Assembly: GCA_001787005.1 (NCBI GenBank)
Contig: MFUV01000010.1
Span: forward strand, 9,955-73,954
Length of the DNA stretch: 64,000 nucleotides
DNA from: Candidatus Nomurabacteria bacterium RIFCSPLOWO2_01_FULL_39_18
GTDB taxonomy: Bacteria; Patescibacteriota; Minisyncoccia; Phycocordibacterales; UBA9973
Direction of reading: 5' to 3'
Part shown: positions 60,176 through 60,727 of the stretch, one piece after another
How the letters are laid out: each line of letters begins with the position of its first letter
Numbering within the stretch: position 1 is the stretch's first letter
The notes under the pieces: generated by a model
What the model saw: the letters and a program-made list of their open reading frames with translations, nothing else
What the model was told of the DNA's origin: nothing
Databases searched by the model: none
Made by a program: the position numbers and the translations under genes

Positions 60176-60262
60176 CAACCCCCTGAATCCCCCTTATCAG
60201 GGGGACTAAAAATATCTCTTGTATTCCCTTCCCCTGACAAGGGGAGGGTTAGGGAGGGGTTG
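60176..60262. repeat. 87-bp GC-rich composite palindromic element B, overlapping the 3' end of the DUF559 gene and lying in the gltX leader
   Basis: caaccccc..ccccttatcaggggg..cccttcccctgacaaggggaggg..gggaggggttg; direct-repeat partner at 60646. Confidence 0.55.
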
Positions 60263-60632
60263 TCTTTTTTATTCTTTTTATTAAGTCTTCTTTAACCCTC
60301 TCCATATTCTCCAAAACTTCTTCATTTCTATATCTTAGTATTCTCAATCCAAATTTTTGCTTTAATAAATTATCTCTTTCCTTGTCCCTTTCTTTTTGGA
60401 AATCATGTATTCCCCCGTCTATTTCTACTACCAAGCCCAGACTTGCACAATAAAAATCCACAATAAAATTATCTAGGGGTTTCTGTCTAGTAAATTTAAA
60501 TTCTGCCAACTTTTTATTTTTCAGAATTGTTTCCCAAAAAATTTTCTCTGCTTCGGTTGTTTCTTTTCTTAATTCTCTTGCTCGAGAGACCAAATTTTTA
60601 TCATAAGGAATATAGGGTATATTGTTTTTCAT
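60249..60632 (-). CDS. DUF559 (Vsr-like endonuclease fold) domain protein
   Basis: LRKETTEAEKIFWETILKNKKLAEFKFTRQKPLDNFIVDFYCASLGLVVEIDGGIHDFQKERDKERDNLL matches the DUF559 consensus; start taken at the ATG (the track ORF starts at an upstream TTG inside element C). Confidence 0.65.
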   Translation of the reverse strand: MKNNIPYIPYDKNLVSRARELRKETTEAEKIFWETILKNKKLAEFKFTRQKPLDNFIVDFYCASLGLVVEIDGGIHDFQKERDKERDNLLKQKFGLRILRYRNEEVLENMERVKEDLIKRIKKTTPP

Positions 60633-60645
60633 AGATTTAATTCTA

Positions 60646-60727
60646 ACACAACCCCCCAACCCCCTTATCAGAGGGCTTCCACAACCACTTCTCCTCGCCC
60701 TGACAAGGGAGAGGTTGGGAGAGGGTT
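60646..60727. repeat. 82-bp GC-rich composite palindromic element C, 14 bp upstream of the DUF559 gene
   Basis: acacaaccccccaaccccc ttatcagaggg..ctcctcgccctgacaagggagagg ttgggagaggg; same orientation and module order as element B; related to the in-frame elements in dus and topA. Confidence 0.55.

Follow-up and report, generated by a model that had tools for sequence, protein, structure and literature searches.

Motifs of the BoxC, PIT or triplex type have been known since the 1990s. Holder et al. (2015, Nucleic Acids Research, PMC4666352) describe the G/C-rich intrastrand triplex motif (TM), earlier termed BoxC or PIT element, as three consecutive blocks (Y-R-R or Y-Y-R, 6-15 nt), the first two of which are complementary, separated by loops of 1-6 nt. 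The consensus in E. coli is CCCTCNCCC-N3-6-GGGNGAGGG-N3-GGGNGAGGG; the second loop is often TTA, and the motifs often form inverted pairs. TMs form triplexes in vitro, mark rearrangement-prone loci and are strongly conserved in sequence across distant bacteria, while their function and means of spread are unexplained; no mobility gene was ever found near them and no enzyme has been linked to the rearrangements. Earlier experiments cited in the same paper, which names neither ycjD nor any endonuclease, attributed neither promoter nor terminator activity to PIT/BoxC (PMC4666352). Here we describe a locus in a 64,000-nt stretch of Candidatus Nomurabacteria bacterium RIFCSPLOWO2_01_FULL_39_18 (contig MFUV01000010.1, positions 9,955 to 73,954; hereafter the window), in which two inverted pairs of such modules, elements B and C, bracket a gene of the DUF559 family, and we follow this pairing across bacteria.

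The minus strand of the window carries mraY, ftsW, murG, DUF559 and gltX in this order; the DUF559 protein is 100% identical to its entry for RIFCSPLOWO2_01_FULL_39_18, and contigs of that genome have this gene order. The features of the locus are listed below.

60176-60262: element B, an inverted module pair 3' of DUF559 (sequence, fold, motif scans)
60646-60727: element C, an inverted module pair 5' of DUF559 in gene orientation (sequence, motif scan, fold)
60249-60632, minus strand: DUF559 gene, an open reading frame (ORF) of 127 amino acids with its ATG at 60632 (Pfam PF04480)
60741-61883, minus strand: murG, the upstream flank of the insertion site
58728-60152, minus strand: gltX, the downstream flank of the insertion site
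about 60168-60740, minus strand: the whole indel block, comprising C, DUF559, B and short A/T-rich edges (empty versus occupied junctions)
60159-60167, minus strand: extended -10-like box TGCTATCAT, kept at occupied and empty sites and marking the right-hand edge of the insertion

On the plus strand element B reads CAACCCCC-TGAAT-CCCCCTTATCAGGGGG ... CCCTTCCCC-TGACAA-GGGGAGGG-TTA-GGGAGGGGTTG. Its left half (60176-60204) is AACCCCC-TGAAT-CCCCC-TTATCA-GGGGG, of the C-C-G class, and its right half (60223-60262) is CCCTTCCCC-TGACAA-GGGGAGGG-TTA-GGGAGGGG, of the C-G-G class. Element C holds the same modules in the same order in a slightly degraded form (CCCCCTTATCAGAGGG ... CGCCCTGACAAGGGAGAGG-TT-GGGAGAGGGTT), with AACCCCCC-AA-CCCCCTTATCAGAGGG as the left half (60646-60679) and CGCCC-TGACAA-GGGAGAGG-TT-GGGAGAGGGTT as the right half (about 60693-60727). 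We term as form R the order of a C-run, the 6-nt loop TGAYAA, a G-run, a spacer of 2-5 nt, a second G-run and then TT; form L is its reverse complement, i.e., AA, C-run, spacer, C-run, TTRTCA and G-run. Both B and C read L-loop-R, and the locus in gene orientation is therefore L-R-DUF559-L-R. Each element folds into a long hairpin with two internal hairpins. The stop codon and the last 3-4 codons of DUF559 (..TTPP*) lie inside element B, and a gap of 13 nt separates the end of element C from the DUF559 ATG. The G+C content is 0.53 in B and 0.59 in C, versus 0.38 in the window and 0.31 in the DUF559 ORF. An earlier note on this DNA had described two GC-rich elements with the same modules in the same orientation around a DUF559 gene in the murG-gltX spacer, one of them overlapping the gene end, and the sequence and the identity of the flanking genes bear out each of these points.

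The core motif CCCTGAYAAGGG, with at most one mismatch allowed, occurs four times in the 64 kb, all within B and C, where 0.27 occurrences are expected by chance and four were reached in 0 of 100 shuffles. A generic scan of the window for a pyrimidine block followed by two purine blocks returned only two matches, one on each strand of B, and within these 64 kb the motif is confined to the cassette. The right half of B fits the published type A pattern of the E. coli TMs (TMECO), and B and C each correspond to an inverted TM pair with one module per strand. Judged by sequence, B and C are thus members of the known BoxC/PIT/TM class and not a new family; Rfam matched no family to B, C or the region at either gathering or permissive thresholds. 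What is shared with the class includes the order of pyrimidine block, loop of 3-6 nt, purine block, loop of about 3 nt (TTA) and purine block, as well as the inverted pairs, the G/C richness, the conservation across distant bacteria and the occurrence at rearrangement-prone loci. The differences are that the literature describes orphan intergenic motifs without a gene, whereas the modules here form both ends of a DUF559 cassette and are also translated in frame inside genes; that the modules here have a TGAYAA loop and, for the most part, plain C5-6/G5-6 blocks; and that within the 64-kb window they are not multi-copy but restricted to the cassette. In other genomes and in phages solo copies are abundant.

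The hairpin of the module is visible in its variation. In a set of 150 distinct modules, C-G is near-invariant at each of the four inner pairs of the stem, and the next two pairs switch jointly between C-G and T-A. Changes on both sides of the stem were counted in 118 cells as against 60 ± 13 in shuffles, a level reached in 0 of 500 shuffles, and the signal collapses once the partners are slid. These compensatory changes indicate that hairpin formation has been selected. A resemblance to a tRNA anticodon loop, raised by the match of CCCTGATAAGGG to papers on tRNA-Ile, was rejected, since the C before TGAYAA pairs with the following G in 138 of 150 modules and the loop has 6 nt rather than 7.

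The coupling of DUF559 with these modules extends far beyond this genome. With one genome taken per species, a scan covered 80 loci in about a dozen phyla whose DUF559 relatives are 41-83% identical, from the Candidate Phyla Radiation, Poribacteria, Binatia, Desulfobacterota, Chloroflexota, Cyanobacteria, Nitrospinota, Gammaproteobacteria and other lineages. A module lies no more than about 100 nt from the DUF559 domain in 70 of them. The commonest order is R-gene-L, that is hairpin(TGAYAA)-run, gene, run-hairpin(TTRTCA), found complete in 28 loci and one-sided in 22, and the R end often stands exactly 11 nt before the codon of a conserved IPY motif. Module density is about 1 per 170 bp near DUF559 and 1 per 5.8 kb beyond 400 bp. 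When the upstream flank was compared with the reverse-complemented downstream flank in 76 loci, cognate flanks gave a median score of 32, versus 27 for non-cognate and 15 for shuffled flanks (p = 4e-6); over 16-44 nt the two flanks are genuine inverted repeats of each other.

The same module design is found, with other loops, at DUF559 genes that are more distant, namely TTATTAA in Moorena, TTAGAAAA in a Calditrichia genome, TGTTAA in locus L062 (compared loci are numbered with the prefix L), AGAATT in Pseudanabaena, a GATTC-type loop in pAQ6 of Picosynechococcus PCC 7002 and TCAA/TTGA in Deinococcus. In each of these loci the upstream and downstream loops are mutually reverse complementary. 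DUF559 is found wedged into operons of cultured organisms as paaD-DUF559-paaZ, sufB-DUF559-sufC and, in E. coli, sapF-ycjD-fabI. In E. coli K-12, TMECO #9 (1351204-1351239) lies 168 bp downstream of ycjD, which is a DUF559 gene, and a degenerate module covers the last codons of ycjD; by our own arithmetic, from 23 copies in 4.6 Mb, the chance of such proximity is about 0.002. The fabI-TMECO-ycjD-sapF stretch is matched end to end in 3346 of 5426 complete E. coli genomes (L242:600-1700, equal to K-12 1350899-1351999; L243). In the remaining genomes the similarity breaks off some 40 bp away from TMECO #9, and what follows fabI there is a TetR/RND-efflux region. The pairing of DUF559 with TM modules across phyla is new here; the association is not described in the literature searched, which covered few subscription-journal papers, and an earlier notice is possible.

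Several loci show unusual arrangements of the same parts. A Poribacteria chromosome holds four tandem DUF559 copies in 2.6 kb with modules on each (L029:4001-6567), and two further Poribacteria loci (the whole of L056; L058:124-364) have, to either side of DUF559, arrays of up to 17 hairpin modules that repeat about every 78 nt. On cyanobacterial plasmids DUF559 interrupts or adjoins genes for DUF1156 methylases and for a BREX PglX methylase (L238:828-3294, from a plasmid of Synechocystis sp. B12; L239, from pAQ6 of PCC 7002; L249), in addition to the restriction-modification and methylase contexts of other loci.

Comparison of the murG-gltX junction among relatives defines the inserted unit. 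Starting from MurG homologues and their contigs, empty sites were found in L091-L096 and occupied sites in L011-L015, L019, L026 and L027. In the six empty relatives gltX directly follows murG across a spacer of 16-77 bp with neither DUF559 nor modules, so that the search for an empty site that the earlier note had proposed ended in a clean junction. The MurG of L091 is 95% identical to that of the window, and its empty spacer (ATGCTAAAATGTCCAT) has the same extended -10-like box TGCTATCAT that is found after B, 6 nt before the gltX ATG. Since the box is shared by empty and occupied sites, the insert spans the region from the murG stop to just before the box, about 60168-60740. C, DUF559 and B, about 570 bp together, behave as a single insertable or deletable block. 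Because the box lies between B and the gltX ATG, B is located upstream of the likely gltX promoter rather than in the gltX leader, where it had been placed before. We infer the promoter role of TGCTATCAT from its sequence, and the downstream doublet B would separate the DUF559/murG transcription unit from that promoter. In all compared genomes (window 60150-60167; L091-L096) the extended -10 box appears to stand only 6-8 nt before the gltX ATG, a spacing that suggests a leaderless or near-leaderless gltX mRNA.

Eight other species-level genomes have DUF559 at the murG-gltX junction, with modules on at least one side in all eight; no syntenic relative was thus seen with the gene and without the elements. 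Their MurG is 50-76% and their DUF559 60-83% identical to the window's, and DUF559 has the same orientation in all nine loci. The cassette looks old, intact and long resident at this site. Three of the eight have extra unrelated genes in the spacer between modules, and the junction is therefore called a small cassette hot spot. An Asp/Glu-racemase-like ORF in L019 (2272-3170) is flanked by a duplicated 34-nt R module; further spacer cargo is located at L012:3043-3986 and L013:2715-3995, and the cargo kinds include a 217-amino-acid ORF of unknown nature and a DUF1566-like secreted protein.

DUF559 with its modules is also found inside other genes. In 19 loci the unit lies in frame within an N6_N4 DNA methylase of about 900 amino acids, always in the sense orientation (19/19); the methylase is followed by a ResIII gene and is therefore regarded as type III Mod. 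Empty alleles were sought with the insert removed from one methylase and the joined flanks as the query. The best 120 matches are 80-88% identical over 99-100% of the query; all 120 run through the insertion point without a break, and the DUF559 domain is present in none of them (0/120). Empty alleles read ..IEVKPHV(K)KN directly followed by SVAVELTDF.., and occupied alleles have the same flanks around PPDKGGKGG-DUF559-..PLSGG..; in the DNA, about 12-15 nt of the empty allele give way to the insert. The unit was also found in frame in HsdS, in an MmeI/TaqI-like protein and in the isoleucyl-tRNA synthetase (IleRS) of a member of the Peribacteria. Most reading frames of the modules are open, and the peptides that they encode are rich in Pro and Gly. 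Rfam gave no intron match and no intein motifs were found at the junctions; the in-frame copies are read through.

In the IleRS ORF of 1378 amino acids (L088:2303-6439) the cassette lies in frame as L-gene-R beside the zinc-knuckle region, an order that appears as if the gene had been placed in the loop of a solo pair. The same ORF holds a separate insertion of a histidine-phosphatase (His_Phos_1) domain. In L074 (630-4825) an uninterrupted type III Mod is followed by a DUF559 cassette and then by a second copy of the methylase C-terminal segment alone, which is reminiscent of the spare part of a shufflon. A solo L-loop-R pair occurs in frame in the same methylase at L049:3500-3700, with SNSPLSGEEGGEQDFPPDKGGLRGVE in place of GVNPNLREAEQ, and several such pairs are present in one methylase ORF at L047:1676-4864.

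To our knowledge, the very large DUF559 family has no known role. The window protein matches PF04480 with E = 1.7e-32 over profile positions 2-108 of 109, and 425 homologues were found, with D59, E70, D72, H76, R82, D83, E85, R86 and D87 as invariant positions; for D59, E70, D72 and H76 this holds in 38 sequences. An AlphaFold (AF2) model has a predicted local distance difference test score (pLDDT) of 83. Foldseek ranks the structural-genomics entry 3hrl (Neisseria DUF559) first and the I-Bth0305I catalytic domain second, followed by AbaSI/PvuRts1I and Vsr, with 3r3p and 1vsr among the matches. On this model DUF559 has a Vsr-like PD-(D/E)XK fold of the homing-endonuclease type and is a predicted nuclease. 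The ratio of nonsynonymous to synonymous substitution rates (dN/dS) in syntenic orthologues is 0.06-0.2, with dS saturated, and by this measure the gene is under purifying selection; at this divergence modules L and R have stayed near-identical, unlike the loop that separates them. PADLOC and NCBIfam returned only weak or below-cut-off matches (DpdF, mREase_II, PRK09767), and a search for phage carriage of this DUF559 clade returned only two distant matches at 36% identity.

Other identities for the unit were considered. No transposase domain and no match to Y1_Tnp was found, and DUF559 is the sole gene of the unit. Elements B and C as attC sites of an integron were rejected, as the outer ends AACCCCC ... 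GGGGGTT put AAC outermost and the core sites (RYYYAAC ... GTTRRRY) in the wrong order, and as no integrase was found in the neighbourhood within the window. A scan for consensus terminators at B found nothing on the DUF559 gene strand, and a terminator role of B was rejected on this result.

As the best explanation of the locus, and with the balance about even, we regard it as a selfish nuclease-plus-repeat unit in which DUF559 has BoxC/PIT/TM modules at both ends. We infer that DUF559 acts on the modules. It would be a nuclease specific for structure or sequence that recognizes the modules, in the form of a hairpin, triplex or cruciform, where DNA is supercoiled or for a short time single-stranded, and that makes a nick or cut at this place. 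Recombination and repair by the host would then copy the cassette into cognate empty sites in a homing-like manner, and the same processes could raise the number of solo modules or rearrange them, and could take up adjacent DNA. If DUF559 does act at the modules, the published link between TMs and genome instability would thereby be explained. A broader proposal, for which we can claim only a tentative standing, is that DUF559 proteins are the missing enzymes of the BoxC/PIT/TM repeats, i.e., structure-specific nucleases that recognize the hairpin or triplex modules, drive their multiplication and the rearrangements at such loci and propagate the gene that encodes them as a cassette bounded by modules. 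The earlier interpretation is partly supported by these results: the block is an indel that carries its own elements, as expected of a small mobile cassette, and the link between DUF559 and the element family extends across phyla through cognate flanks, while movement by means of the nuclease stays conjectural.

A number of observations weigh against the selfish unit. Neither a target-site duplication nor a defined target sequence was found at the murG-gltX junction or at the methylase insertion point. A PD-(D/E)XK nuclease alone is incapable of strand transfer; the unit would therefore have to spread via host repair, as free-standing homing endonuclease genes do, and the absent duplications fit such repair-mediated copying. 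Presence and absence at murG-gltX could reflect loss rather than gain, and DUF559 identity there tracks or exceeds that of its neighbours, which fits a host-beneficial gene as well. A further point is the abundance of modules without the gene. An exact-pattern scan for R and L found modules on 21 viral contigs, with DUF559 within the retrieved stretch in none (0/21). Among the matches listed, at least 143 modules occur on 120 metagenome contigs and only one of the 143 adjoins DUF559; of the 87 that have at least 600 nt on both sides, none has DUF559 beside it; and solo modules outnumber DUF559-linked ones by about 100:1. The modules may thus, on this count, spread or arise independently of DUF559. 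G·U wobbles are further biased toward the strand with the TGAYAA loop (56 vs 27), a weak difference that includes non-independent cases; counts of G·U versus A·C have no bias relative to the DUF559 gene strand, and a strand-specific RNA function was rejected, the gene-strand bias being absent and the 2:1 loop-strand bias too weak to rely on.

The solo modules form L-loop-R pairs in about 40% of cases, lie inside long ORFs in about 20%, and occur in hosts with a G+C content of 0.22-0.64; there are in addition short R-88 nt-L units that contain no gene. The relation is asymmetric, in that nearly every gene of this DUF559 clade has modules and about 1% of the listed modules have the gene. By analogy, such an excess would fit an autonomous element accompanied by its non-autonomous derivatives.

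The same excess of solo modules supports a passenger role of DUF559, in which the modules are independent recombinogenic repeats, spread or generated by another factor or by replication errors at triplex-forming DNA, and the gene was caught once and is carried as cargo by module-to-module recombination. The gene-less R-88 nt-L units also favour this view, as do the other cargo genes (racemase, DUF1566-like, unknown ORF) between modules in the same spacer, the racemase within its duplicated 34-nt module, and the fact that the link of TMs to rearrangement was published without any enzyme (PMC4666352). It is hard to reconcile, however, with DUF559 clades that are 37-45% identical and each have their own loop variant matched on both flanks, as a single capture would scarcely produce them; it also leaves unexplained why the module and the conserved N-terminal motif keep a fixed register of 11 nt, and no other gene family is seen repeatedly in this position. 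We consider the passenger role unlikely, and the foremost of the alternatives.

A host function of DUF559 is marginally less probable still. DUF559 would be a useful nuclease of DNA repair or processing, acting on replication blocks or mismatches at G/C-rich structures or as a Vsr-like partner of methylases; the modules would be expression signals (Shine-Dalgarno hairpin, mRNA stabilizer, insulator or terminator), and the indels ordinary gene gain and loss. The strong purifying selection is in line with this, with a conservation at least that of murG, ftsW and gltX in syntenic genomes, and so are the frequent DNA methylase and restriction-modification neighbours and the presence of ycjD at one locus in at least 62% of E. 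coli genomes. Several Parcubacteria have GGAGG 7-9 nt before the ATG, contributed by the 3' arm of the hairpin upstream. Yet insertion in frame into an essential IleRS and into a methylase with abundant uninterrupted alleles is unlike a housekeeping gene, and in the in-frame copies the modules have neither a promoter nor a start codon on which to act. The empty terminator scan of the gene strand at B and the lack of promoter or terminator activity of PIT/BoxC (cited in PMC4666352) also speak against expression signals. An invertible segment, in which the inverted modules are sites of programmed inversion and act as a phase-variation switch for the interrupted or abutting genes, draws on the true inverted repeats of 16-44 nt, on the 14-fold enrichment of the annotation 'DUF559 domain-containing protein' among predicted programmed-inversion targets (PMC9881135) and on L074, where a repeated C-terminal segment of the methylase comes after a second DUF559, but is very improbable given the one orientation in 19/19 methylase and 9/9 murG-gltX loci and the lack of any integrase or recombinase gene near the cassette in the window.

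Two further regions of the window had been named by the earlier note as in-frame relatives of the elements, in dus and topA. One of them is a hairpin:

27300-27362, plus strand: G/C-rich hairpin inside dus (fold; comparison with a Dus structure)

It reads ACCTCACC..CCCCTCTCC-TTGACAA-GGAGAGGGG..GGTGAGGT, folds with z = -5.9 and is translated in frame; the topA stretch folds no better than shuffles. As relatives of the elements both are weak, with a loose similarity only. In its blocks CCCCTCTCC/GGAGAGGGG and outer arms ACCTCACC/GGTGAGGT the dus hairpin corresponds to the variant that is usual in E. coli BoxC and in the flanks on the Synechocystis plasmid rather than to the C5/G5 variant of the cassette, and it is possibly a diverged solo relative of that BoxC-like variant. 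Dus as a clean in-frame insertion was rejected, the net length difference from the Dus structure 1vhn being about 4 residues. In the Nomurabacteria relative L096 (268-2972), an AccI-type restriction enzyme and an Eco57I-like methylase are inserted into the cell-wall gene cluster, between ftsW and murG.

The coupling of DUF559 with TMs, which rests on the cognate flanks, the clean empty sites and the in-frame insertions, merges two open questions, that of the TM repeats and that of the role of DUF559, into one testable hypothesis. It is open to test in E. coli (ycjD, 23 TMECO copies), in cultured cyanobacteria and in Deinococcus. In minimal genomes of the Candidate Phyla Radiation such a cassette persists under purifying selection, and IleRS and type III Mod are examples of conserved enzymes that tolerate the 150-residue nuclease which it inserts. 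If DUF559 proteins are indeed the enzymes of these repeats, a cassette that lands in frame would graft a nuclease domain between module-encoded Pro/Gly-rich linkers, and E. coli ycjD would be a ready test system. Next to REP/RAYT, the repeats and DUF559 would then also be the second case in bacteria of an independent partnership between a repeat and an enzyme, present in most phyla including the Candidate Phyla Radiation.

Three known systems resemble the cassette in part. Rickettsia palindromic elements (RPE) and in-frame miniature inverted-repeat transposable elements (MITEs) share with it palindromic repeats that are intergenic as well as in frame, where they add short peptides, and terminal inverted repeats. 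Neither RPE nor MITEs enclose a gene of their own, and target-site duplications are usual for MITEs, whereas the form seen here looks autonomous, with a nuclease and with no duplication seen. Of the features that define a MITE or insertion sequence, terminal inverted repeats are present, and a transposase and, at both compared junctions, a target-site duplication were not found.

Free-standing homing endonuclease genes, including the Vsr-like I-Bth0305I family, resemble the cassette in being small nuclease genes that occur patchily at one site between conserved genes and are wedged into operons; the fold match to the I-Bth0305I catalytic domain and the lack of a target-site duplication are further likenesses. 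Presence and absence at one homologous site, as is characteristic of homing genes, is seen both at murG-gltX and in type III Mod. The cassette differs in that it has no intron or intein and possesses its own conserved inverted repeats, and in that its in-frame copies are translated with the host protein and not spliced.

The closest formal parallel is REP/REPIN with RAYT (REPtrons). In both, a single-copy enzyme gene is flanked by inverted copies of an otherwise dispersed short palindromic repeat, the repeat occurs in solo and doublet copies of which the doublets fold to a longer hairpin, and the repeat variant matches the enzyme lineage. In contrast to the HUH/Y1 (IS200/IS605-like) transposase of that system, the enzyme here is of the Vsr-fold PD-(D/E)XK type, and the modules are without the GTAG/CGTC tag, have an extra run (triplex-type) and are near-identical across phyla. 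Moreover, the cassette described here is an indel in its own right and can occupy in-frame positions within genes.

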